A DNA stretch of 40,346 nt, taken from contig CAYWSQ010000003.1 of NCBI GenBank assembly GCA_964460925.1, positions 3,905 through 44,250 of the forward strand. The letters run 5' to 3'. This DNA comes from an uncultured Flavisolibacter sp. GTDB taxonomy: Bacteria; Bacteroidota; Bacteroidia; Chitinophagales; Chitinophagaceae. This document shows positions 176-30,852 of this stretch, piece by piece; the first letter of the stretch is position 1; the number at the start of each line of letters is the position of its first letter. The notes under the pieces were generated by a model that ran no database searches, was not told the DNA's origin, and saw nothing but the letters and a program-made list of their open reading frames with translations. A program made the position numbers and the translations under genes.

Positions 176-263
176 CGGAGACTGAGGGATTCGAACCCTC
201 GATACCCTTTAGAGGTATACACACTTTCCAGGCGTGCTCCTTCAACCACTCGGACAAGTCTCC
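176..263 (-). tRNA. tRNA-Ser (anticodon GGA), CCA not encoded
   Basis: Reverse complement GGAGACTTGTCCGAGTGGTTGAAGGAGCACGCCTGGAAAGTGTG...GGGTTCGAATCCCTCAGTCTCCG has acceptor stem GGAGACT/AGTCTCC, anticodon loop CTGGAAA, a long variable arm and a TTCGAAT T-loop. Confidence 0.97.
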
Positions 264-334: not shown

Positions 335-1093
335 CTATAGTTTGAATAAGTTTCGCGCATTTCTTGATGTTAATTCTGCTACCTCATCAAAACTCCGCCC
401 ACTGAGCTGCGCCAGTTTTTCCGCCACAAGCCTTGTATAAGCAGGTTCATTTCTTTTGCCACGGTATGGCACTGGCGCCAGGTAGGGCGCATCTGTTTCA
501 AGGATCACTGAGTCCAGACCCAATTCTTCCATCACCTTATCCAGGCCTGCATTCTTGAAAGTAACCACGCCCCCAATGCCCAGCATCAGCCCCAGCCCTT
601 TTATCTTTTGCGCCTGGTATACATCGCCTGAAAAGCAATGAAACACGCCCCTGATCCCTTTATACTGCCCGATCACATCAATGCATTCATCCACAGCGTT
701 CCTAGAATGGATCACCACCGGCAGGTCAGATTCCAAAGCCAGCCTGCACTGCGCATGAAAGGCCTCATATTGCTGCTGAACAAAAGTTTTATCCCAGTAA
801 AAATCCAGCCCGATCTCTCCAATAGCAATAAATCTTCTTTGTTCGAGATAGGCCCTGATTATTTCCAGCTCCTGCTGGTAGCCAGGAGTAACCGAACAGG
901 GATGAAGTCCCATCATGGCATGGCAACCTTCAAAAGAAGCTTCCACTTCCAGCATCTTCTTATGCGTGGAGCTGTCAATAGCCGGGAGATAAAAAGCAAC
1001 AATTCCCGCTTCACGGGCACGATTCATCATGGTGTCGCGGTCATCATCGAATTCTGGCAAATAAATATGCGTATGGGTGTCGACCAGGGTCAT
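335..1093 (-). CDS. tatD: TatD family hydrolase/nuclease
   Basis: DTHTH, IGEIGLDFYW, IHSR, HCFSG and LETDAPYLAP motifs. Confidence 0.95.
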   Translation of the reverse strand: MTLVDTHTHIYLPEFDDDRDTMMNRAREAGIVAFYLPAIDSSTHKKMLEVEASFEGCHAMMGLHPCSVTPGYQQELEIIRAYLEQRRFIAIGEIGLDFYWDKTFVQQQYEAFHAQCRLALESDLPVVIHSRNAVDECIDVIGQYKGIRGVFHCFSGDVYQAQKIKGLGLMLGIGGVVTFKNAGLDKVMEELGLDSVILETDAPYLAPVPYRGKRNEPAYTRLVAEKLAQLSGRSFDEVAELTSRNARNLFKL

Positions 1094-1424
1094 TTTCTTG
1101 ATATGGATACGGGCAAAGCTGGTGAATTATTTAACACCCATTCAGGAGCGGCCCGGACCAGAGGGTATCAACCAATGGAGCAAGGACGGAAAGAACCCGG
1201 ATTCACCTATTGTGCTGGCTATCAGTGCCCATAGCTCCTGGATTTTGCGCCTTATTTTAAGGAAGCCAGTGGAAGAATAGCCCGTTTTGAGGGCAGTCCC
1301 GCATGGGTTTTGGAGGGAATACTTTTATCAATGGTGTAACATATAAAGCACGCTGGAGAGGACTAAAAAACAGGTAAAAATTAATTTGAATTTTATATTC
1401 CAAAAAAGTTTTTACCTTTAAACC

Positions 1425-1484
1425 AGTTTTCATAGGGTACGGATTAAAAACGGGCCAGGGTTTCTACCCAGGCCCTAATTATTT
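1425..1484 (+). ncRNA. candidate small RNA (anti-start-codon seed plus hairpin)
   Basis: TAccTTTA (-7-like) at 1413-1420 and TTTG at 1385-1388, then GTTTTCATAGGGTACGGATT and hairpin GGGCC-A-GGG/TTTCTA/CCC-A-GGCCC (1452-1475). Seed is complementary to several leaders in the window. Transcription is inferred, not shown. Confidence 0.45.
1446..1475 (-). terminator. intrinsic terminator of the deacetylase gene (possibly bidirectional)
   Basis: GC-rich stem followed on the minus strand by GTTTTT, about 26 nt past the stop codon. Confidence 0.65.
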
Positions 1485-1501: not shown

Positions 1502-2137
1502 TCAGAATATTTCCAGTTTCTCAGACCTCAGCTTATTTTTTTCCAGGTATTCCAGCGTTGCCGGGAGTGCATATTTCAAATTCGGAAAAGCTTTTTCACT
1601 GTCATGAAATACTATGATGGATCCGGGCCGGATATGGTTGGTTACATTGTAAAAACAACCCTGTGGTGAGATGCCGGCATCAAAATCTCCACTCAGTACA
1701 TCCCACATAATGATCCTCGCGTTTTCTTTTCCCATGGCCGCAGGTATCTGCCTGGCCTGGCTCTGCCTGATCCTTCCATAAGGGGGGCGGAATAAGATTG
1801 AATCCACCAGCGGAACTGTTTTCCTTACATCTTCAAGATATTCCGCATCTTTCGTGAGCCAGCCATTCTTATGCTGATAGGTATGATTCCCCACCGCATG
1901 GCCCTGCTGCAGTATACTATCATATACTTCCGGATGCTGGAGCACATTCTTCCCAATGCAAAAAAAACTTGCCTTCATGTCAAACCTTCGCAGCTCCTCC
2001 ATAACCCAGGGTGTGATCTCCGGATGAGGCCCATCGTCAAAACTCAGGTACACCGCATCACTGCCGCTGATATCCCATACATAACCGGGATAAAGTTTTT
2101 TGAGAAGCCATGGAGTTTTCACCAAATATTTACGCAT
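1502..2137 (-). CDS. polysaccharide deacetylase (CE4/NodB family)
   Basis: LSFDDGP, GNHTYQH, FRPPYG and IIVFHD motifs. Start moved to MRKYLVK (2137) because the upstream extension overlaps gltX. Confidence 0.92.
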   Translation of the reverse strand: MRKYLVKTPWLLKKLYPGYVWDISGSDAVYLSFDDGPHPEITPWVMEELRRFDMKASFFCIGKNVLQHPEVYDSILQQGHAVGNHTYQHKNGWLTKDAEYLEDVRKTVPLVDSILFRPPYGRIRQSQARQIPAAMGKENARIIMWDVLSGDFDAGISPQGCFYNVTNHIRPGSIIVFHDSEKAFPNLKYALPATLEYLEKNKLRSEKLEIF

Positions 2138-2181
2138 GCAGGTGTAAGTATTGAAAATTAAAAGTACGAAGGAGATCACCT

Positions 2182-3787: not shown

Positions 3788-4204
3788 ATGCAAAAAACAA
3801 ATCGTCCCATACGTGTTTTAGTTGCCAAGGTAGGCCTCGACGGTCATGACCGAGGAGCCAGGGTGATCGCTACTGCCATGCGTGACGCGGGCATGGAAGT
3901 GATCTATACAGGATTGAGGCAAACACCGGAAATGGTGGTGCAGGCAGCCCTGCAGGAGGATGTGGATGCTATTGGAATCAGTATTCTTTCCGGCGCACAC
4001 ATGACCGTGTTTCCAAAAGTGCTGGCACTGATGAAGGAAAAAGGAATGGATGATGTACTGCTAACAGGCGGAGGCATCATACCTGAAGAAGATATGAAAC
4101 AACTGCAGCAGCAGGGCGCGGGAAAATTATTCGCGCCTGGCACACCTACGGGAGAGATCGCGGCCTACATCCGCGAGTGGGTTCAAAGCCACCGCAACTT
4201 CTGA
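3788..4204 (+). CDS. stand-alone cobalamin-binding domain (methylmalonyl-CoA mutase C-terminal subunit type)
   Basis: [10 protein letters not shown] (DxHxxG), SILSGAH and GGGIIP motifs. Confidence 0.93.
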
Positions 4205-5395
4205 TCACTTTAGAAATGCACCCAGGTTATAAATAAATCCCTGTGCATACTGCGATGGATGACTCCAGTTCTGCCCCATCCTCACGATCACAAGATTTTT
4301 GGCAGGGTTCACATAAATATACTGTCCCAGTATGCCTTCCGCATGATAAGCACCGGATGGATACTGAACAAGGTAATAGGGAGGCCTGTTTTGCGGCTCC
4401 ATGGGACGCACCTGTGACTGCGGATGAAGCGCGGCGAATTCCTTTGCTTTTTCATAATCGGTGAAACTGGTGCGGTTCACATCAGACCACCACTGGTTCT
4501 TATAGTTTCCGTTCATTCTCAATGTATCGGGATGAACACTGTTTCTTATCCATGATGAAGGCACTACCTGCTTTCCCTGCCAGAGTCCATTCTTCAAATA
4601 AAGCATTCCGAATTTGGCGAAATCCCTGGCTGCGGCATTGATACAGCAAAAGGCACGAACCATGTCTTTCTTATCATCATTCCAGCTTGCCATATATTCC
4701 ATACCCAGCGGCGCCCAGAGTTTTTCCATGGCATAATCCTGCAATGAACGTCCCGTTGCTTTTTCAATCACCATGGCAAGCAATTGTGTATTCACACTGC
4801 GGTAGTCGAAGGTGCCAGGTGCATCTTCCAGTTTTGTTTTTAAAGGGGTGCGTGACACATTGCGGGCGAATCCCATCCTGAGTACATCGCTGAAAGGATT
4901 GCTGTAATTCTCATTGCTCTTTACGCCGCTGCGCATGTCGAGCAAGTGCTGAACCGTTACCTTATTATAATCCCCGTCAACCCCGCGTAATGAAGGCAGG
5001 TAGGCTGTTACGGGATCGTTCACATTTTTGATATATCCTTCATCAATAGCAATGCCGGTGAGTGCACTCACAAAAGATTTGGCCACTGAAAAAGAAGGAA
5101 GTTTGGACGAATCAGTTACCGTTCCGAAATATCTTTCGTAAATGATGGAATCATTCTGTACCACGAGGAATGCATAGGTCCGCGAACCCTGCAGGTTGCT
5201 GTCGAGGTAAGCAGCCAGGGAGGCATGATTTGCGGTATTATAAGCAAATACAAATGGTGTGTCCGAAGGTTTGAGCGCTATGGCATCCATTTTTTCGAGG
5301 TCCTTAAGGTTGAACTGGCGGTATTTATAGGCACGTACCACATAACAGGATTGCAAAATGAACACTGCTAGCAGGGCGATGGATAACCGTATCAT
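4205..5395 (-). CDS. serine hydrolase, beta-lactamase/AmpC-like family lipoprotein
   Basis: SVAK (SxxK), FDYRS, GILGQYIYVNP and lipobox LQSC. Confidence 0.88.
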   Translation of the reverse strand: MIRLSIALLAVFILQSCYVVRAYKYRQFNLKDLEKMDAIALKPSDTPFVFAYNTANHASLAAYLDSNLQGSRTYAFLVVQNDSIIYERYFGTVTDSSKLPSFSVAKSFVSALTGIAIDEGYIKNVNDPVTAYLPSLRGVDGDYNKVTVQHLLDMRSGVKSNENYSNPFSDVLRMGFARNVSRTPLKTKLEDAPGTFDYRSVNTQLLAMVIEKATGRSLQDYAMEKLWAPLGMEYMASWNDDKKDMVRAFCCINAAARDFAKFGMLYLKNGLWQGKQVVPSSWIRNSVHPDTLRMNGNYKNQWWSDVNRTSFTDYEKAKEFAALHPQSQVRPMEPQNRPPYYLVQYPSGAYHAEGILGQYIYVNPAKNLVIVRMGQNWSHPSQYAQGFIYNLGAFLK

Positions 5396-5448: not shown

Positions 5449-6219
5449 ATGTATCAGACCCTGCTCACCCAACTGGAGAACGGAATTTTTACCATCACTA
5501 TCAACAGGCCGGATAAACTGAATGCACTCAACCGTGATGTGATAGAGGAACTGGGAAAAGCAGCCAAAGAAGTTGAGGAAATCAAAGAGATCAAAGGTGT
5601 TATTCTTACCGGGGCCGGCCAGAAAGCTTTTGTAGCAGGCGCGGATATTTCGGAATTCACAGGGCTTTCGGTTTCCGAAGGAAGAGCGCTGGCCAAAAAA
5701 GGGCAGGATATATTTTTTCAATTTGAAAATTGCAGCAAACCTGTGATAGCAGCCGTGAATGGTTTTGCACTGGGAGGCGGATGCGAACTGGCTATGGCCT
5801 GTCATTTCAGGATCGCCAGTGAACAGGCGAAGTTTGGCCAGCCTGAAGTGAACCTGGGACTGATCCCCGGTTATGGCGGCACACAAAGGCTGGTGCAACT
5901 AATAGGTAAAGGAAGAGCAATGGAGTTGCTGATGACTGGGAATATGATCGATGCAAAAACTGCACACCAGTACGGACTCGTGAACCATGTAGTGAGTGCT
6001 GAAGAACTTTTACCAAAAGCAAAACAATTGCTGGAGCTGATCACCTCAAAGGCCCCGCTGGCCATCAGTCATTGCATCAGCGCTGCCAATGCAGCCTATA
6101 CTTCTTCAGGTTATGAAAAAGAACTGGATGGTTTTGGCAAATGTTTTGGAACAGAAGATATGAAAGAAGGAACGAGAGCTTTTTTGGAGAAAAGGAAACC
6201 GGTTTTTACTGGCCAATAG
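5449..6219 (+). CDS. enoyl-CoA hydratase/crotonase family protein
   Basis: FVAGADI, ALGGGCE and PEVNLGLIPGYGGTQRL motifs. Start set at 5449 because TACATTTG (5426-5433) lies inside the longer ORF. Confidence 0.93.
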   Translation: MYQTLLTQLENGIFTITINRPDKLNALNRDVIEELGKAAKEVEEIKEIKGVILTGAGQKAFVAGADISEFTGLSVSEGRALAKKGQDIFFQFENCSKPVIAAVNGFALGGGCELAMACHFRIASEQAKFGQPEVNLGLIPGYGGTQRLVQLIGKGRAMELLMTGNMIDAKTAHQYGLVNHVVSAEELLPKAKQLLELITSKAPLAISHCISAANAAYTSSGYEKELDGFGKCFGTEDMKEGTRAFLEKRKPVFTGQ

Positions 6220-6229
6220 CCATTGGCCT

Positions 6230-6874
6230 TTAGCCATTTTGCGGAAAGATCCGGATGGCCTTAATGAACCTTCCCATATAATAGCGGCTCAGCGGCGTGA
6301 TGGTAACACCATAGGCTTTGCCGGATGTGGAATGAATAAAATTGACCACGCCTTTTTCCTGGTTCACTACCAGGCCCATATGTCCCACAAATTTTTCTGT
6401 GCTGTCCGTGCCGGTAAACAATACAATATCGCCGGGCTTCACTGTTTCAAGCGGAATAGGTTTTCCCACCTCAGTGAAATCGATCGATGACCTGGGTACG
6501 ATGATACCGAAATGATTGAAGACATAAGTGATGAAACCGGAACAGTCGAAACCCTGGCGGGGATCTGTTGAAGCATATTTATAGGGAACACCAACCAGGG
6601 TTTTGGCATAATCGATCAGTTGTTGCGGCAGCACATTTTTGGTGTCGATCTGTTTGCCGGTAAAAAATTCCGAGATAGTTGAATCTGCAGTAAGGCTGTC
6701 TGCCGGCACTGCGCTTTTGTTTAATGAATCTGCATACAGCGAATCCATATAGGCCTTTGCCTGCAGGGAATCCTTTGAGCTGATCTCGATGGGGTTCTTA
6801 TCCTCGATCACATAAACGCAGGCTGAAAATGCCATGCTCAATACCAGTAAGAATGCCAACCTGTTTTTAGTCAT
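6230..6874 (-). CDS. NlpC/P60 (C40) peptidase lipoprotein
   Basis: GFDCSGF, GHMG, FIHS and lipobox FSAC. Confidence 0.92.
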
Positions 6875-6924
6875 ACTCTATCGGTACAATTTTCGGGCTA
6901 AATTTGCGGCTCAATCTTACCTAT

Positions 6925-8322
6925 ATGCCAGAATTCCGCATCGAGAAAGATACCATGGGCGAAGTGAAAGTACCTGTGGACGCCTATTATGGCGCTCAGA
7001 CCCAGCGCAGTATCGATAATTTCAGGATTGCCCAGGACATCAACCGCATGCCAAAGGAAATCATCAAGGCCTTTGCCTACCTGAAAAAAGCCGCCGCTAT
7101 CACCAACCTGGAAGCGGGTGTGCTGGCCAAAGAAAAATCTGATCTGATCGGAAGGGTTTGTGATGAGATCATTGATGGAAAGCTCGATGAATTTTTTCCC
7201 CTTGTTGTGTGGCAAACCGGGAGCGGCACCCAGAGCAATATGAATGTAAACGAAGTGATTGCCTACCGGGGTCATGTATTAAACGGGGGCAAGCTGGCCG
7301 ATAAAGAAAAAGCATTGCATCCCAATGATGATGTCAACAAATCTCAATCATCCAACGATACCTTCCCTACCGCCATGCATATTGCCGCCTACAAAATGCT
7401 GGTTGAAGTAACCATACCTGGAATAGAAAAACTGAGAGATACACTGGCGGAGAAAGCAAAAGCTTTTGATAATGTGGTGAAGATCGGCCGCACGCATTTT
7501 ATGGATGCCACCCCGCTTACACTGGGACAGGAATTCAGTGGTTATGTATCACAACTCAATCATGGATTGAAAGCAATCAAAAATACACTTCCGCACCTGG
7601 CTGAACTGGCACTAGGTGGAACAGCAGTGGGTACCGGCATCAATACACCTGAGGGTTATTCTGAAAATGTTGCAAGGCATATTGCCAGTCTTACAGGACT
7701 TCCTTTCATAACCGCGGAAAATAAATTTGAAGCACTGGCCGCCCATGATGCGATCGTAGAATCGCATGGTGCCTTGAAAACAATTGCGGTGAGCCTGATG
7801 AAGATCGCCAACGATATCCGCATGCTCAGCTCCGGACCACGGGCAGGCATAGGCGAAATTTTCATTCCTGATAATGAACCCGGTTCTTCCATCATGCCAG
7901 GCAAGGTGAATCCTACCCAATGCGAGGCTCTTACCATGATCGCGGCGCAGGTGATGGGCAATGATGTTTCCATCAATATCGGAGGATCTATGGGACATTT
8001 TGAACTGAATGTTTTCAAACCCGTCATGATCTATAATTTCCTGCACAGTGCGAGACTGATTGGTGATGGTTGCGTGAGTTTCAATGACCGTTGCGCTACA
8101 GGCATAGAACCCATTGAGGCCAATATCAGGAAGCATGTAAATAATTCACTCATGCTGGTAACAGCGCTCAATACCAAGATCGGCTATTACAAAGCCGCTG
8201 AAATTGCACAAAAAGCACATAAGGAAGGCACAACTCTTAAAGAAATGTCAGTGAAACTGGGATATGTGACCCCTGAAGAATTTGACCAGTGGGTGGATCC
8301 GGCGAAGATGGTGGGAAAGTAA
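6925..8322 (+). CDS. fumC: class II fumarate hydratase
   Basis: [23 protein letters not shown] and [11 protein letters not shown] motifs. Promoter TAAATTTG at 6899-6906 supports the ATG at 6925. Confidence 0.97.
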
Positions 8323-8412: not shown

Positions 8413-8494
8413 TCCCTCTTGCATTTCACCAATACATTCTCTAATTTAACAATGCATAGATAAACGTTTCCGTTACCCTAAACTCCAACCTGGT

Positions 8495-8695
8495 ATGAAA
8501 GATAGATCCCAGTCCGCCATCCAGTACAGCGGATACCCGCTGTCGGTGATCGAAAACAAAACTCCTGTCATCAAATCTGCTGTTGTGCGTATGCCGGTAA
8601 CACAAACGCATACGCAAACCACATTCATTCAAAAAAACCAGATCTCCAATGATCCCCGCAACTGGGATGTGAACTGGTTTGGTTCCTATGAATGA
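8495..8695 (+). CDS. small hypothetical protein (66 aa, C-terminus WDVNWFGSYE)
   Basis: ATG ORF filling the intergenic gap, with a leader resembling the T9SS gene leaders. No family recognised. Confidence 0.55.
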   Translation: MKDRSQSAIQYSGYPLSVIENKTPVIKSAVVRMPVTQTHTQTTFIQKNQISNDPRNWDVNWFGSYE

Positions 8696-10402
8696 TCAGA
8701 GCTTGATGATCTTACTGGTTTGCAGTACCTGGTCGTAAGCGTTACGCACCTGCACATAATACATGCCTGCAGGCAATTCTTTGATATCCATCATCAGGTC
8801 TGACCGTGTTGTTTTCTGGCTCTTCATTTTTACACCCGCCATATTGAACACATCCACGTAAAACGGTTTAGCAGCGCTCACTTTCACTGATACCATTAAC
8901 GGGCCGGTGGTAGGGCTCGGGTAAACAGATATCTTCTTTTCCACTTCACCGGGTTGCAGCAGCGTATTATCATTGATGGGAAGGATCAGGCCTGAATAGG
9001 AAAATTCAAGTATGCGTCCTGCATTCGGGGGAGGGGTGCCACCTCCATTGAAACCACCGGTTGGCCCGGAAGTTTGTCCGCTTGCATCACAGGCCAGATA
9101 AAATTTGACCCCGTTTGGCGCTATTGCCAGGTCGCGGAATCTTCCTTCACCCCTGAAATAGCTGGTTGTATCTGTACCCCCGCTGTTATTCGTGATCCCG
9201 GTGCCGGCCGCATTAAGCTTCAGACGGTAAACACGTCCTGCTTTAAGACAGGTAACCAGCACACTGTTCTGCCAGCCCGGGATTTTTCCTGCTGTATAAA
9301 GATCAATGCTGGAGGGTGCCACGGTAGGCCAGGAAAGAAAGTTGGACCCGAGGGCCTGTATGTCAGTTTTATTGAGGGTGAATAAGGTCTTTACAGGTTC
9401 CCGGTTGGTAGTGGGATTTGCAGCCGCGAATGCAGCTTCATCCACGCCTGAATAGCCACCGAGTGTTAGACCGTTATAGTTATCATCACAATAACCCGAT
9501 ACGCGGTTCCATCCATAATTATTACCAGGAGTGATCAGGTTTACTTCATCATCGGTCTTATCTCCATGTTCGGAACTAAACAACCTGTCGGTGCCATTGA
9601 TGTTTGCCCACACAATACCCTGGGCATTGCGGTGCCCTCGCGAATACACGTAATCTCTTGGTGATATCGGCAGCCCGTTGTAGAATGGATTATCACCCGG
9701 AACCCACCTGTCATCGCCAGTGCCCACAGGCTCTGAGTTAAGTCGAAGAATTTTTCCCTCCATTACATCGAGCGCCTGCGCATTGTTGGTGCGTGAACTG
9801 TTATTAAACTGGCCTGCCCCCATATCCCCGATGGTATAATAGAGTTTCAGGTCGGGTCCTATGATGAGCCTACCGGAGTTATGGTCATTGCTTCCGGGCA
9901 TGTTATCGAGTATGATTTCCGGGTTGGAAAGTGTATTGCCATTGTATTCATAACGCACGATCCGGGTCAGGAAATTACAGGGATTGCCGGAGTTGGCATT
10001 AGTTGAGCAGTTTTGCCCTGTGGGCCTGTTGAATACATAGGCCAGGTAAACCCAGGGTTTGGCAGCTCTTGTTGCCGCATCGGAACTATATAGGTTAGGA
10101 TGAAGTGCCATACCCATCAAACCACCCTGGGGCCAGCGGCCACCATCGCCCATGGAAAAATTCTTTAAAGCGGAAAGATTCAGCAATGTAGTGGCTGTAC
10201 CATTGGCCACATTGATCCTCTTAACAAGGTAAGTAACACTTTCCGTGACCCAGATTGAATCATTGGGCCCGTAAACGATTTCCCAGGGAGAGTTTAAATT
10301 ACTGGCAACCACCCTTTTTGTAAAGGGTTCACCCTGGGCCATCACTATTTGTGAAAGACAAAGCCAGCCTGTAAGGAATAACCATTTCCGATTTTTGGAC
10401 AT
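8696..10402 (-). CDS. PQQ-dependent sugar dehydrogenase (GSDH beta-propeller) with T9SS type A C-terminal sorting domain
   Basis: Signal peptide; PWEIVYGP, QGGLMG, HNSGRL, GDMG, GHRNAQG, EHG, DDEVN and RFRD motifs; CTD VYPSPT...LPAGMYYVQV...KIIK. Confidence 0.88.
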   Translation of the reverse strand: MSKNRKWLFLTGWLCLSQIVMAQGEPFTKRVVASNLNSPWEIVYGPNDSIWVTESVTYLVKRINVANGTATTLLNLSALKNFSMGDGGRWPQGGLMGMALHPNLYSSDAATRAAKPWVYLAYVFNRPTGQNCSTNANSGNPCNFLTRIVRYEYNGNTLSNPEIILDNMPGSNDHNSGRLIIGPDLKLYYTIGDMGAGQFNNSSRTNNAQALDVMEGKILRLNSEPVGTGDDRWVPGDNPFYNGLPISPRDYVYSRGHRNAQGIVWANINGTDRLFSSEHGDKTDDEVNLITPGNNYGWNRVSGYCDDNYNGLTLGGYSGVDEAAFAAANPTTNREPVKTLFTLNKTDIQALGSNFLSWPTVAPSSIDLYTAGKIPGWQNSVLVTCLKAGRVYRLKLNAAGTGITNNSGGTDTTSYFRGEGRFRDLAIAPNGVKFYLACDASGQTSGPTGGFNGGGTPPPNAGRILEFSYSGLILPINDNTLLQPGEVEKKISVYPSPTTGPLMVSVKVSAAKPFYVDVFNMAGVKMKSQKTTRSDLMMDIKELPAGMYYVQVRNAYDQVLQTSKIIKL

Positions 10403-10576
10403 AGGAAGTTGGATTTACCACAAAATAAACAGGCGAATGATGTGAATCAATAGTAATAATCCCTGAGAAATACTCAGTAAAAGAGGGTAAAAAACTACAG
10501 GAATTACCTATTGCGCAGCATATCATGGGGGCCTATCTTCGGTATAAGATCCAACCCTATAAAACCGAACCTAACT

Positions 10577-12820
10577 ATGAAACACAATACTACCATATCC
10601 GCTTTTGTTGGTGTATTGGCATTTTTCCTGCTCGGTCTATTCCCTTTTATATCACAGGCGCAGAACATCGATTTTGGTAAGAGTTACTATAACGTTACCA
10701 AGGCTACCAATGGCGGAACTGTAGAACCAGGCGATGTGCTGGAGATCAGGGCTTCCATAGTAGTGAGGAACGGCACCTATGACAGTTGCGCTTATTTTGA
10801 CGTGATCCCTGCAGGAACCACTTATATTCCCGGTACCATCAGGGTGCTTACTAACGAAGGAAAAATCTATAAACAGTTTACTGATGCCATTGGTGATGAC
10901 CAGGGTTTCCGCAGCGGCGCGAACATCCGTATCAACCTGGGTTACCGGGGCAATGCCAACCCGGCCACTGCCTACAGGAGAGGCCGTATTGTGAATAACC
11001 ACAGGCCATCTTTTTATGGCAGCACCTGTATCATGATCGCATCTTTCAGGGTAACCGTAACCGCAGCATATAATACTACGATCAGTCTTGGTGGAGGATC
11101 TATGTCCTACAGGCCATCCGGACAGGGGCTGCAGTCATTCACTTTTCCGGCCAGGAGGGTTATGGTTTACCAGAATGTAGGTATCTGTCCCAATGCTGTT
11201 GGCGCCAACTCACTTGGAACAGAATTCAATGGAACATTTGGTACAGGTAAAAACCGTAACAGGGGCACCTCTGCGAATGTGCCTACAGGTTATACTTACA
11301 ATGTATTCACCAACAACTCTCCAAACGATTATTATTACGGCATTCCGAATAATACAAGTATCCGCACCGGGTATACCACTACCAACGACTGGCCCAAGCC
11401 CAATGGTACCTACAGGGTGTTCAGTGTATGGGATATCATTGGTGACCATACGGGTGCATCCAATCCCTTACTGGGTAATCCGCCCGCCGATACTGTCAAT
11501 AACGACAATGCCGGTTATATGCTGGTGATCAACGCGGCTTACCGCATTGACTCGGCTTTTCAGCAGACCATTTCAAATCTTTGTCCCAATACCTATTACG
11601 AGATCTCCGTTTGGATGCGCAACATCTGTTCCCGTTGCGGTTGTGATTCTGCTGGCCGCGGTGCCGGAAATGCAGGATACATTCCAACGGCCGCAGGCGA
11701 CTCTTCAGGTGTTTATCCGAACCTTTCGTTCAACGTAGATGGGATTGACTATTATACTACAGGTAATATTTTGTATACAGGTCAGTGGATCAAAAAAGGA
11801 TTTACTTTCAGAACTGGCCCAACGCAGAACAGCTTCACCCTTAAAATTTTCAACAACGCGCCTGGTGGTGGCGGTAACGACTGGGCGCTGGATGATATAT
11901 CTGTCGCCACCTGTAGTCCCAACCTGGCCTTCACACCCAATAACACACCCACAGTGTGTTCAGGAAACGTAGTAGACATAGGCGCTTACATCAGGTCGTA
12001 TTTCAACAATTATACATTCTATAAATGGCAACGCAGTACTGATAATGGTGTGAACTGGACGGATGCAGGAAGCATAGGTACAGGAGTACCAGTATGGAAT
12101 GGCTCTGCTTATGAATACTACACAGCCTTTCCCACATTTGTTGCGAATATGGCCGACAGTGGATTAAAATTCCGCGTGGTGGTTGCCAGTACCATTGCCA
12201 ATATCTCCGATCCCAACTGTTCATTCGCGGATGCGAGTTCCATCCTAACCTTGAATGTGATCGATTGTGGCTACGCTCTCAAGACTGACATCATTTCTTT
12301 TTCCGGAAAAAATGAGGAGGGCACCGTTAAGCTCAACTGGGTTTCCAACCAGGAAGATAACCCGGTGCGATATGAAGTGGAAAGAAGCCTGGATGGTGTG
12401 CAGTTCTCACGTATCGCGGAAGTGAATGGTTTGAATGGCAGTGAAGTCAATTATTATAAATGGTCGGGAGCTTTCCCGCAGGCCAATACAGCGTTTTACC
12501 GTATCAGGCTTATTGATGGCAACCAACAGAAAATTTCAAGAGTTGTGCGCCTGAGTTCGAGCAGGGAAATGCTTAATCTTGCCAGTGTGATCAATCCTTT
12601 TAGCGATAAACTTCAAGCAGAAGTGAATGCTGGTTCCGCGCAGGTAGCACAGCTTCAACTGATTGATAACTCGGGCAGGGTGGTAAAAATGCAGCAGGTG
12701 AATATTGCAGAGGGATATAATACTATTCAAATTGAAACAGCTAACCTGCCGAAGGGTTTGTACACACTTCAGTTGAGAACAAATACTGTTGTGATCAATA
12801 AACGGGTGGTGAAGCAATAG
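10577..12820 (+). CDS. T9SS type A sorting domain-containing secreted protein
   Basis: Signal peptide, N/G/T-rich beta-type body, and CTD NPF...LPKGLYTLQL...RVVKQ. ATG 10577 follows TATCTTCG (10534-10541). Confidence 0.85.
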   Translation: MKHNTTISAFVGVLAFFLLGLFPFISQAQNIDFGKSYYNVTKATNGGTVEPGDVLEIRASIVVRNGTYDSCAYFDVIPAGTTYIPGTIRVLTNEGKIYKQFTDAIGDDQGFRSGANIRINLGYRGNANPATAYRRGRIVNNHRPSFYGSTCIMIASFRVTVTAAYNTTISLGGGSMSYRPSGQGLQSFTFPARRVMVYQNVGICPNAVGANSLGTEFNGTFGTGKNRNRGTSANVPTGYTYNVFTNNSPNDYYYGIPNNTSIRTGYTTTNDWPKPNGTYRVFSVWDIIGDHTGASNPLLGNPPADTVNNDNAGYMLVINAAYRIDSAFQQTISNLCPNTYYEISVWMRNICSRCGCDSAGRGAGNAGYIPTAAGDSSGVYPNLSFNVDGIDYYTTGNILYTGQWIKKGFTFRTGPTQNSFTLKIFNNAPGGGGNDWALDDISVATCSPNLAFTPNNTPTVCSGNVVDIGAYIRSYFNNYTFYKWQRSTDNGVNWTDAGSIGTGVPVWNGSAYEYYTAFPTFVANMADSGLKFRVVVASTIANISDPNCSFADASSILTLNVIDCGYALKTDIISFSGKNEEGTVKLNWVSNQEDNPVRYEVERSLDGVQFSRIAEVNGLNGSEVNYYKWSGAFPQANTAFYRIRLIDGNQQKISRVVRLSSSREMLNLASVINPFSDKLQAEVNAGSAQVAQLQLIDNSGRVVKMQQVNIAEGYNTIQIETANLPKGLYTLQLRTNTVVINKRVVKQ

Positions 12821-21871: not shown

Positions 21872-22843
21872 TCAGAGGATCACCTGCCTGGCCACATTTA
21901 CATCCTGGCCATTGGTGATCGATACAATATAATTTCCTTTCAGGTGAGTCCTGGGTTGCAGAATGACCTGGCCCACTGCTTCATTGATATTTTGCTGTTC
22001 AAGAACCTGTCCGTTCAGAGACACGATCCTTACAACCAGTTTAGATTTGATCTGCTGGGGAAACTGCATCAGCACTTTACCCTGAACGGAGGCGATATTG
22101 ATATTAGATGGTGCAGCCGACTGCTCTGTTTTAATGGTTTTGATATCAGTATAAGTAAATCTTGAATCAATGTCCACCTGCTTCACACGGTAATAAACCA
22201 CGCGGGAACTAATGTTCTTATCAGTATAGGAATAATTGTTCAGGGTATTAGAGTTACCGATAGCGGAAACATAAGCGATCGTCCCCCATTTAGAGCCATC
22301 GAGGCTGCGCTCAATCTCGTAGGAATGAGCATTGATCTCTTCAGTAGTTGACCACTGAACCAATACATCAGTAGCGTTCTTACGTGAGAGTGTAAACCCG
22401 GCAAATTTTACGGGCAGGGGATTATAGCTGGCAAATCCATTGGAACTTCCGGTAGCCAGTTGCGGACCGTTAAGCGTGTTTGCATAGAAGATGGTTTGTC
22501 CGCCGAGAATGATATACTGAAAAAAGTCAATAGTTGATTCGAGTCTGCCACCTGCTGCTACCTGGATCTTGCTGGCAGCATTCAGGGATAAATAGCTCAG
22601 GAAGTTGGTCAGTTTTACAGTTCCGTGTACTTCCAGGTAAACATTATTGAGCGTCTGCTGGCTGCTGATAATTACGGTTCTCCCGGCAGGAATAACAATG
22701 GTATCGCCATTTGCCGGTTTACGGTTCAAATTCCAGGTGGGGTTTGCCTGCCAGTTGCCATTTCCAACGGCTTCGATTACAGGAGCTGAAAAAGATAAGG
22801 TTGAGATGAAAAGTCCCAGGATGAGGAAGTAGAATTGCTTCAT
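21872..22843 (-). CDS. secreted protein with T9SS-type C-terminal sorting domain
   Basis: Signal peptide MKQFYFL...SFSA, GNW motif, LPVKF...W.T..E.N...YEIERS.DG module and CTD KGNYIVSI. Start at 22843 follows TATCTTTA. Confidence 0.82.
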   Translation of the reverse strand: MKQFYFLILGLFISTLSFSAPVIEAVGNGNWQANPTWNLNRKPANGDTIVIPAGRTVIISSQQTLNNVYLEVHGTVKLTNFLSYLSLNAASKIQVAAGGRLESTIDFFQYIILGGQTIFYANTLNGPQLATGSSNGFASYNPLPVKFAGFTLSRKNATDVLVQWSTTEEINAHSYEIERSLDGSKWGTIAYVSAIGNSNTLNNYSYTDKNISSRVVYYRVKQVDIDSRFTYTDIKTIKTEQSAAPSNINIASVQGKVLMQFPQQIKSKLVVRIVSLNGQVLEQQNINEAVGQVILQPRTHLKGNYIVSITNGQDVNVARQVIL

Positions 22844-23217
22844 GGTACGGATCTTTTTAGTTGTTTTCTTAGGGTTGCTAAAGATACCGGTAAGTTTTTC
22901 TAAGTGAATCTGCTTATTGGTAGCCCTTAGCGAGAGCAAAACTATAATGCAGTTTTTTGAGATGCAAGTATTTTTACTGTTTATTGGCGTAAAACCACAT
23001 ATTTTTTTAAAAATTGGGCATAAATTCCTGATAATCAGCAAAACCATTCTAAGTAGTTCCAATTAGTCTTTTTAAAAAACTGGTCTAAAAATTATCAGTT
23101 CTGCCAAATTCCATATGGTAAAAACCCGGTGGCTTTCGCGAAAACGTCCCAGGAAATTACTTATCGCCATTAAAAAACCCGGTAAATAAACCCTTAGAGG
23201 AGTTTGATAAGTTTTTC

Positions 23218-29598: not shown

Positions 29599-30852
29599 TC
29601 AGGCCTTATATTTTTTGAAGATCATGCAGGCATTATGTCCGCCAAAACCAAACGTATTGCTCAGCGCAGCATTCACCGTTCTTTTCTGGGCTTCCCAGAA
29701 AGTGAAGTTCAACCGACTGTCCAGTTCAGGATCATCTGTAAAATGATTAATGGTAGGTGGTACTATATCATTCTGCACAGCCATGATACAGGCAATGGCC
29801 TCGATCACACCGGCTGCACCCAGGCAATGCCCGGTCATGGATTTGGTAGAACTGATATTGAGCTGGTAGGCATGTTCTCCAAAAACATCGGTGATGGCTT
29901 TTACCTCGGCAATATCACCCAGCGGTGTGGACGTACCATGCGTATTGATATAGTCAATATCCGAAGGTTGCATACCGGCATCAGCAAGCGCCTGCAGCAT
30001 AACATTCTTGGCACCGAGACCTTCGGGATGCGGAGCTGTAATATGGTGCGCATCAGCAGTAGCGCCACCACCAGCCACTTCGCAATAGATCTTGGCTCCC
30101 CTGGCAATAGCATGTTCATATTCTTCAAAAACCAGTATGCCCGCGGCCTCACCCATTACAAAACCATCGCGGTCCTTATCGTATGGCCTTGATGCGGTTT
30201 TGGGATCATCATTTCTTTCGCTGAGTGCTTTCATGGCATTGAATCCACCTACACCTGCTTCTCCAATCACACTTTCAGAACCACCAGTAAGAATGATGTC
30301 AGCCTTACCCATACGGATAAGATTGAAAGCCTCCATCATGGCATTGGTGGAAGATGCGCAGGCACTCACCACGGCAAAGTTGGCTCCCCTGAATCCATGA
30401 CGCATGGATATATGCCCCGCTGCGATATCAAGGATCATCTTCGGAATAAAGAAAGGATTGAAACGCGGCGTGCCGTCACCTTTTGCAAAATTCATTACCT
30501 CTTCCTGGAAGGTAAGCAGACCACCGATACCACTGCCGGTGATCACACCAACACGGTCGGGGTTTACATTGTTCTGATCAATGCCTGCATCCTGCACAGC
30601 CTGGTCGCTGGCAACGAGGGCTACCTGGGTAAAGCGGTCCACTTTTCGGGCTTCTTTACGGTCGAGAAAATTGGTGGGATCAAAATTTTTGATCTCGCAG
30701 GCAAACCGGGTCTTGAATTTTGAAGCATCAAAGCCGGTAATAAAATCACAGCCACTGACACCGTTTCTCAGGTTGTTCCAGTATTCTGTGATTGTATTGC
30801 CCAAAGGGGTTAGGGCACCCATTCCCGTAATAACGACTCGCTTCAGTTGCAT
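29599..30852 (-). CDS. fabF: 3-oxoacyl-ACP synthase II
   Basis: SACASS, HHITAP, HGTST, KSMTGH and SNTFGFGGHN motifs. Confidence 0.97.
   Translation of the reverse strand: MQLKRVVITGMGALTPLGNTITEYWNNLRNGVSGCDFITGFDASKFKTRFACEIKNFDPTNFLDRKEARKVDRFTQVALVASDQAVQDAGIDQNNVNPDRVGVITGSGIGGLLTFQEEVMNFAKGDGTPRFNPFFIPKMILDIAAGHISMRHGFRGANFAVVSACASSTNAMMEAFNLIRMGKADIILTGGSESVIGEAGVGGFNAMKALSERNDDPKTASRPYDKDRDGFVMGEAAGILVFEEYEHAIARGAKIYCEVAGGGATADAHHITAPHPEGLGAKNVMLQALADAGMQPSDIDYINTHGTSTPLGDIAEVKAITDVFGEHAYQLNISSTKSMTGHCLGAAGVIEAIACIMAVQNDIVPPTINHFTDDPELDSRLNFTFWEAQKRTVNAALSNTFGFGGHNACMIFKKYKA

Follow-up and report, generated by a model that had tools for sequence, protein, structure and literature searches.

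The 40,346-nucleotide stretch of uncultured Flavisolibacter DNA analysed here (the window) carries, with a tatD-like gene on one side and a convergent polysaccharide deacetylase gene on the other, a conserved element that is very probably a real regulatory RNA gene. In the reading that we consider probable, it belongs to a multicopy family of small RNA (sRNA) units that block the translation starts of secreted proteins in a FopS-like manner, with type-A cargo of T9SS, the type IX secretion system, as the most enriched class, and that are titrated by long elements elsewhere in the genome. That the RNA is of the FopS/GibS kind and has targets biased to T9SS is quite probable, and that candidate multivalent sponges accompany it is slightly favoured by the evidence. 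Bacteroidota export dozens to hundreds of proteins via the T9SS and little is known of their post-transcriptional tuning, on which we found nothing for T9SS-exported proteins of this phylum in the literature searched. A conserved candidate regulator with predicted sites is now available for these cargo proteins. The unit and its neighbours in the window are as follows.

335..1093 (-): tatD-like DNase gene (PF01026), upstream divergent neighbour of the sRNA element
1385..1388 (+): TTTG element of the promoter, lying 24 nt upstream of the -7 box, a spacing that is usually 19-21 nt
1413..1420 (+): TACCTTTA, a TAnnTTTG-type -7 box for the primary sigma factor of Bacteroidota
1425..1451 (+): type-A sRNA seed with its linker, single-stranded (unpaired in the centroid)
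1452..1484 (+): terminator hairpin (the hairpin itself at 1452-1475) and T-rich tail
1502..2137 (-): polysaccharide deacetylase gene (PF01522), downstream convergent neighbour of the sRNA element

The predicted RNA extends over about 1425-1484 on the plus strand, some 60 nt, with its +1 at about 1425 placed by FopS spacing. Across 119 homologs, TA..TT was found at a fixed distance from the seed in 114 and TTG in the zone of the upstream promoter element in 110, while the other upstream letters were variable. The box matches TAnnTTTG, the primary promoter consensus given in the accessible part of PMC9723704. It is followed by an invariant single-stranded seed of about 25 nt and by a terminator whose stem covaries: seven of its nine pairs showed two-sided changes, 91.3% of cells were paired, and none of 500 shuffles equalled this. 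The same hairpin can also end the deacetylase gene on the minus strand. An earlier reading of the letters alone (the sequence-only reading) had proposed a box at 1413-1420, a seed at 1426-1445 and a set of target sites, all of whose letters and coordinates proved exact; its hairpin also stood, and only the loop was revised, from TTTCTA to a predicted TTCT closed by pairing of T1461 with A1466. Logan contigs from four runs all extended past the predicted sRNA promoter or terminator, and therefore separate neither RNA from DNA nor one strand from the other. At gathering level, Rfam returned for the window only the tRNA at 176-263 (-), and at loose E the window and the four paralogs described below gave only chance or terminator matches.

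Seed and hairpin had been expected to be conserved in relatives, and both were. By BLAST, the type-A element was present in 24 of 24 genomes of the same genus and in 0 of 16 genomes of other families. The 20-nt seed was identical in all 20 of the best syntenic loci, whether or not a lipoprotein gene was inserted upstream. This gene of about 306 aa (L002:1628-2548 and orthologs) separates tatD from the sRNA in roughly half of the relatives, has no Pfam family and is absent from the locus in this genome. The exact seed 22-mer occurred in at least 120 genome stretches, and among the matches listed (80 titles) nearly all were Chitinophagaceae, Chitinophagales or Bacteroidota. One contig labelled Candidatus Dadabacteria (L078) holds an exact type-A unit and is probably a misbinned Chitinophagaceae contig; three IMG/VR contigs (L463, L464 and L465) carry exact A or B seeds and may be host DNA or phage-borne. 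Neither the A nor the B seed was found in 110 genomes of other families in the order. A covariance-model search of the phylum gave strong matches in the unit's own family only, the weak ones being mostly plain terminators. A pattern of promoter plus seed matched 14 of 201 genomes across the phylum; one match was a true FopS copy (L259, 80.9 bits against RF04319), which served as a positive control, five matches spread over four genomes belonged to the family, and the remainder were chance-like. A looser seed pattern gave counts at control level outside the family. We therefore claim no phylum-wide superfamily.

A profile search of this genome (G000) found one type-A copy and four copies with a second seed, type B, at unrelated loci.

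C25:6873-6934 (-): type-B paralog
C139:10070-10130 (-): type-B paralog
C140:8036-8095 (-): type-B paralog
C171:6150-6209 (-): type-B paralog

The element had been taken for a single sRNA; it is real, yet it is one member of a multicopy family. Exact seeds of type A, B or a third type C were found in 21 of 30 other genera of Chitinophagaceae, and 22 of 31 family genomes held between 1 and 11 exact-seed copies, often one A and several B. Seed variants of types C and D were seen with the same promoter-seed-terminator layout (L263 and L273 in G046; L434 in G347), and the type-C seed has the word GGTTAA in common with FopS. A different two-copy promoter-to-terminator unit, of about 65 nt, lies at C74:~8815-8895 (-) and C85:~4495-4575 (+) of the same genome (L167, L168). 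Each copy adjoins a gene of about 64 aa, one is next to an integrase-like gene, and neither matched Rfam at E<=3; the unit is possibly an antisense or antitoxin RNA.

Predicted targets were ranked by pairing of each seed with 3086 leaders of this genome. The sites in the window are listed here.

22839..22852 and 22863..22875 (-): sites at and before the start of the G8-domain T9SS cargo gene 21872-22843, fitting type A
10544..10582 (+), including 10549-10565 and 10575-10582: leader and start sites of T9SS cargo gene 10577-12820
10400..10416 (-): site spanning the start of T9SS cargo gene 8696-10402 (GSDH domain), fitting type B
8469..8480 (+): site before the 66-aa ORF 8495-8695, -17.0 kcal/mol with type A

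All three larger genes had been named as T9SS cargo, and each indeed carries a TIGR04183 tail, that of 21872-22843 being weak (24-25 bits). The assignment of all their sites to one seed held in part. Gene 22843, at rank 6 of 3086, fits the type-A seed, but the other two fit paralog B better: gene 10402 ranks 2 for B and 418 for A, and gene 10577 ranks 4 for B and 28 for A. Seven of seven orthologs of 10577 kept predicted pairing of -14.7 kcal/mol or better with both seeds, their leaders being diverged and unalignable. The ORF 8495-8695, which ranks about 57 for A and has no Pfam family, abuts the end of the GSDH cargo gene. The statement that housekeeping leaders hold no comparable match failed, as gene 29599-30852, FabF-like by its N-terminus, ranks 25 for the type-A seed.

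The target bias was measured between leaders of T9SS cargo and of other signal-peptide genes, with gene starts from our own gene caller and in genomes that are related to one another. In this genome, 38-39 cargo leaders were kept of 56 TIGR04183 matches; the dropped rows were T9SS genes for which no signal peptide was called or whose start lay close to a contig edge. A raw duplex ranking (31-nt query, -60..+20) was dominated by GC-rich chance matches, with three T9SS genes in the top 100, and was replaced by shorter seeds with shuffle controls. Both seeds then gave stronger pairing for 39 cargo leaders than for a sample of 150 leaders from other signal-peptide genes (AUC 0.65-0.72), and none of 40 dinucleotide-shuffled seeds equalled the T9SS shift in any of four settings. 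The independent test set of relatives comprised 60 regions from three genomes with 84 cargo leaders. Upstream of the ATG in these leaders, 8 of the 25 most enriched 5-mers were antisense to A or B, where 0.88 were expected (the words overlap), and CCAAT and TCCAA, both antisense to B, were the top two of 1024 5-mers. A word set chosen post hoc peaked at -40..-1, with 0.26-0.40 per 10 nt versus about 0.08, on the sense strand only. In the pooled relatives, the complete A seed outperformed 299 and the complete B seed 289 of 300 dinucleotide shuffles, while the 3' seed halves alone gave no gain over such shuffles (45/300 each). Against per-leader shuffles, words of the 3' halves showed observed-to-expected ratios (O/E) of 2.0, 2.0 and 2.25 in three carriers and no excess in carrier G015 (0.81), where 5 of 25 cargo leaders still reach -17 kcal/mol. 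Two non-carriers from other families gave 1.16 and 0.65, and two non-carriers from the same family, each with 10 leaders and no control genes from the same genome, gave 1.38 (G330) and 0.68. Non-carrier G027 had a slight word excess over other signal-peptide genes (p 0.028).

Predicted duplexes of -17 kcal/mol or stronger were found in this genome for 10/38 cargo genes and 68/1056 other signal-peptide genes, in the three relatives for 26/84 and 15/261 (p 1e-8), and in two non-carriers for 2/74 and 9/163; the same-family non-carriers had one in 20 cargo leaders. Carriers differed from same-family non-carriers in energy (p 0.035) and not significantly in word count (p 0.24). Strong sites were present in 36 of 122 cargo leaders (~30%) of this genome and its relatives, and of the 140 strong-site genes of this genome 10 are T9SS cargo. 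The enrichment over shuffled seeds is confirmed as an excess of predicted sites, and the bias toward a minority of type-A T9SS cargo genes is real; exclusivity is not, so that the target set is T9SS-biased rather than T9SS-specific. Cargo with a type-B CTD, of which five genes were usable, gave no signal. The gene gldJ, whose site ranks 3 for B, was rejected as a conserved target because the site was not kept across 28 family orthologs. Three non-secreted genes have very good start-codon sites for type B (C15:16960-17214, C74:14734-15030 and C113:11018-11731, at ranks 1, 13 and 8) and are possible further targets.

This genome also contains six non-coding elements, 180-520 nt long, in which bulged complements of the sRNA seeds are numerous. 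They are given here with the number of seed-complementary words per 250 nt.

C71:11957-12282 (-): partner element, 34 words
C101:~6700-7222 (-): partner element, 28 words
C171:~5560-6017 (-): partner element, 26 words
C247:4591-4840 (+): partner element, 25 words
C344:~1845-2140 (+): partner element, 17 words
C15:~4190-4370 (+): partner element, 17 words

The first four of these intergenic elements are the four densest places in the genome for such words. Read on the strand that complements the sRNA, five of them open with a TAnnTTTG box (C344 has a box variant) and four close with a U-tailed hairpin; C101 and C247 showed no end of this type. None holds a conserved ORF (0-64 aa), and each has about 3-10 predicted sRNA sites. 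In one subtype a 12-bp stem closes the element, and its pairs, read on that strand, are Watson-Crick or G-U only in 16 of 16 copies examined; the closing stem is predicted to leave the seed-complementary sites in open loops, and its 5' arm is invariant across genera. With the sRNA of the window, the C71 copy is predicted to form about 33 nt of pairing around a 4-nt bulge at -41.1 kcal/mol (next best, -35.2); of the 14,442 prefiltered windows, it is surpassed only by the antisense of the sRNA gene itself. Once internal structure is included, C71 gains -28.2 on co-folding, where shuffles averaged -9.9; the remaining five gain -13.4 to -23.1, where the best shuffles reached -10.7 to -18.5. The pairing extends into the linker and terminator arm of the sRNA, and some sites are specific to a B sub-variant. 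A FopS seed paired poorly with the same elements (0-4 sites, best -19.5).

A pattern of promoter plus stem matched 5/7 carriers and 1/114 non-carriers. Seven new loci found with it inside the family held 14-31 seed-complementary words versus 0-2 on the other strand; the one match outside the family held none. In a family sample it matched 5/22 carriers (4/21 beyond this genome) and 0/9 non-carriers, so the stem-bearing subtype is either narrower in distribution than the sRNA or faster diverging. A second partner pattern was genus-specific, with a single outside match inside coding sequence. By our reading, 9 of 20 paralog loci, some of them near-duplicates, have a partner on their own strand no more than a few hundred bases away; in this genome the C171 partner begins about 180 nt after the 5' end of the B copy. 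One adapter-ended public contig ends inside the partner 5' stem and not at its predicted start, and was left out of the evidence. Three of the six partners are interrupted by REP-like palindromes. The 9-base REP-like core occurs 143 times in the genome, also inside partner RNAs, and REP-like palindromic repeats in a direct duplication occupy positions 1-175 of the window, adjoining the tRNA gene. The long elements are likely sponges of the sRNA family. No description of them was found in the literature searched or in Rfam.

The repeated words admit a reading centred on a protein, in which ATCC/CCAAT-type words of cargo leaders and long RNAs are recognised by an RNA-binding protein that is titrated, in CsrB fashion, by the long RNAs, and the sRNA merely masks the sites. 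Many short repeated words in an unstructured long RNA would suit it, as would the eight RRM_1 genes of this genome and the precedent of RbpB, an RRM protein that binds and counteracts FopS according to the accessible sections of PMC11697453. We regard this as unlikely. Complementarity of more than 30 nt that runs into the linker and terminator arm and tracks the A and B sub-variants goes beyond what a short protein motif would need, a search of this genome (93% complete) for CsrA (PF02599) was negative, and promoter and terminator lie on the strand opposite to the GGA-rich one. The long elements might instead be decayed inverted sRNA arrays, or their other strand might be transcribed as an sRNA precursor, with no sponge at all. 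Their position beside sRNA genes at the 9 paralog loci and their likeness to degenerate seed repeats would then be explained, but the promoter box, the G-U wobbles and the U-tailed terminator all lie on the complementary strand and the 5' stem does not vary between genera; we consider both of these readings very unlikely.

Two further readings concern the sRNA itself. It could be a broad damper of all exported-protein mRNAs that start ATG-AAA, with the T9SS bias a product of leader composition: the 5' half of the seed complements the start most often seen in signal-peptide genes (ATGAAA, in 40% of their leaders versus 12%), T9SS cargo makes up a minority of the strong-site genes, and cargo leaders are rich in C. 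This seems quite unlikely to us, because the excess persists against other signal-peptide genes and upstream of the ATG, survives per-leader composition shuffles in three of four carriers (O/E 2.0-2.25), and is not seen for predicted sites in TonB receptors (37 Plug-domain genes, p 0.22-0.8) or lipoproteins (168 genes). If the element did no more than end the deacetylase gene, as a conserved terminator or 3' end, or if it encoded a small peptide on the minus strand, then the minus-strand T-run of the hairpin and the ATG opposite the seed would be accounted for. However, the frame opposite the seed varies from 3 to 61 codons across 140 loci and is therefore not a peptide gene, copies exist away from the deacetylase gene, and conservation is higher in the seed than in the hairpin; we consider this explanation extremely unlikely.

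In the favoured reading, a start-blocking sRNA family with its own sponges, the sRNA would pair over the start codon and the last ~40 leader bases of some secreted-protein mRNAs, and so would cover the A-rich initiation zone and the AUG, as FopS-10 does. Bacteroidota use these elements in place of a Shine-Dalgarno (SD) sequence, according to the accessible part of PMC7366714. Pairing would lower the translation of a set of secreted enzymes and adhesins, types A and B would split the targets between them, and the long RNAs, by offering many bulged target mimics, would set a threshold. The sequence itself shows the unit, its conservation, its paralogs, the excess of predicted sites in T9SS leaders, and the orientation and complementarity of the partner elements; we infer that sRNA and partners are transcribed, that the outcome is repression and not activation, and that the partners act as sponges, and the RRM proteins of this genome may have a role. 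Of the trans-acting, start-occluding sRNA that the sequence-only reading had put forward, the seed, the hairpin and the T9SS site excess remain, and T9SS exclusivity and the lone copy do not. More tentatively, the system may amount to an all-RNA switch on the type IX secretome, in which FopS-like sRNAs close cargo starts and are titrated by multivalent mimics with 3-10 bulged sites tuned to A and B, a CsrB-like stoichiometry achieved by base pairing and without SD occlusion of the Hfq type. In the literature searched, which included few subscription journals, neither this family, nor its partner, nor sRNA control of T9SS cargo in Chitinophagaceae was described.

The sponge RNAs SroC, AgvB and QrrX (the last against paralogous Qrr sRNAs) are mostly single-copy and have one or two sites. 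Like them, the partners are predicted non-coding RNAs with bulged complementarity to an sRNA seed; unlike them, they have about 3-10 predicted sites each, occur in six copies and often stand in tandem with sRNA genes. CsrB and RsmZ are long, largely unstructured RNAs that titrate a protein through many repeated short sites. The partners share the length, the largely unstructured character, the repeated sites and a proposed titration, whereas their sites are complements of an RNA seed, PF02599 was not found in this 93%-complete genome, and the GGA repeats lie on the opposite strand. Rfp18 of Flavobacterium psychrophilum, compared here by description only, also has predicted pairing with several secreted-protease and adhesin mRNAs; it is strongly structured, pairs through its third stem-loop, and its deletion lowers target mRNA (accessible part of PMC9723704). 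A dCas12f guide RNA was considered and rejected: such RNAs have a scaffold with a 3' guide and usually lie near rpoE-dcas12f (accessible part of PMC13472631), whereas here the conserved single strand is 5', the terminator is 3', and the neighbours are tatD and the deacetylase gene.

The closest likeness is to FopS and the GibS R1 seed, Bacteroides sRNAs of Rfam RF04319. In the accessible sections of PMC11697453, FopS is reported from Bacteroidaceae, represses translation at start codons (shown for FopS-10) and targets SusC porins. The start of the type-A seed resembles FopS/GibS and is antisense to CTATGAAAA, and type B equals the FopS-10 primer (PMC11697453, supplement 4, accessible part) and L259 in its first 11 bases and its box-to-seed distance. 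Alignment to L259 was equalled by 1 of 2000 shuffles for B, 49 for A and 13 for type C (G046). FopS/GibS and this family have in common a primary-sigma box, 4 nt, a single-stranded 5' seed beginning GTTTT(T)CATAG and a Rho-independent terminator; with FopS, the family also shares multiple copies per genome, predicted pairing at start codons of envelope or exported proteins, and RRM proteins in the genome. The second seed half and the hairpin are unlike FopS, and TonB receptors are not enriched for predicted sites here while FopS targets SusC porins. RF04319 (gathering cut-off 56 bits) gave no match in the window, the four type-B copies, or G000 and G015 at E<=1, so we assign the unit the FopS layout and do not file it as FopS; the genome of L259 (G164), outside the order, has three RF04319 copies. 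The view that the RNA belongs to no described family thus holds for the Rfam model and gives way to FopS/GibS as a described precedent with the same 11 bases, spacing and layout. Common descent is possible, and so is convergence, because the shared 11 bases complement a common start context. Either way, the anti-start-codon design of FopS/GibS would extend from gut Bacteroidaceae to a family of soil and water with a different target class. A candidate multi-site decoy RNA accompanies it here and none is described for FopS in the accessible parts of PMC11697453 and PMC7366714. The partner RNAs, if true, would be multivalent natural sponges of a paralogous sRNA family and would suggest an equivalent against FopS.
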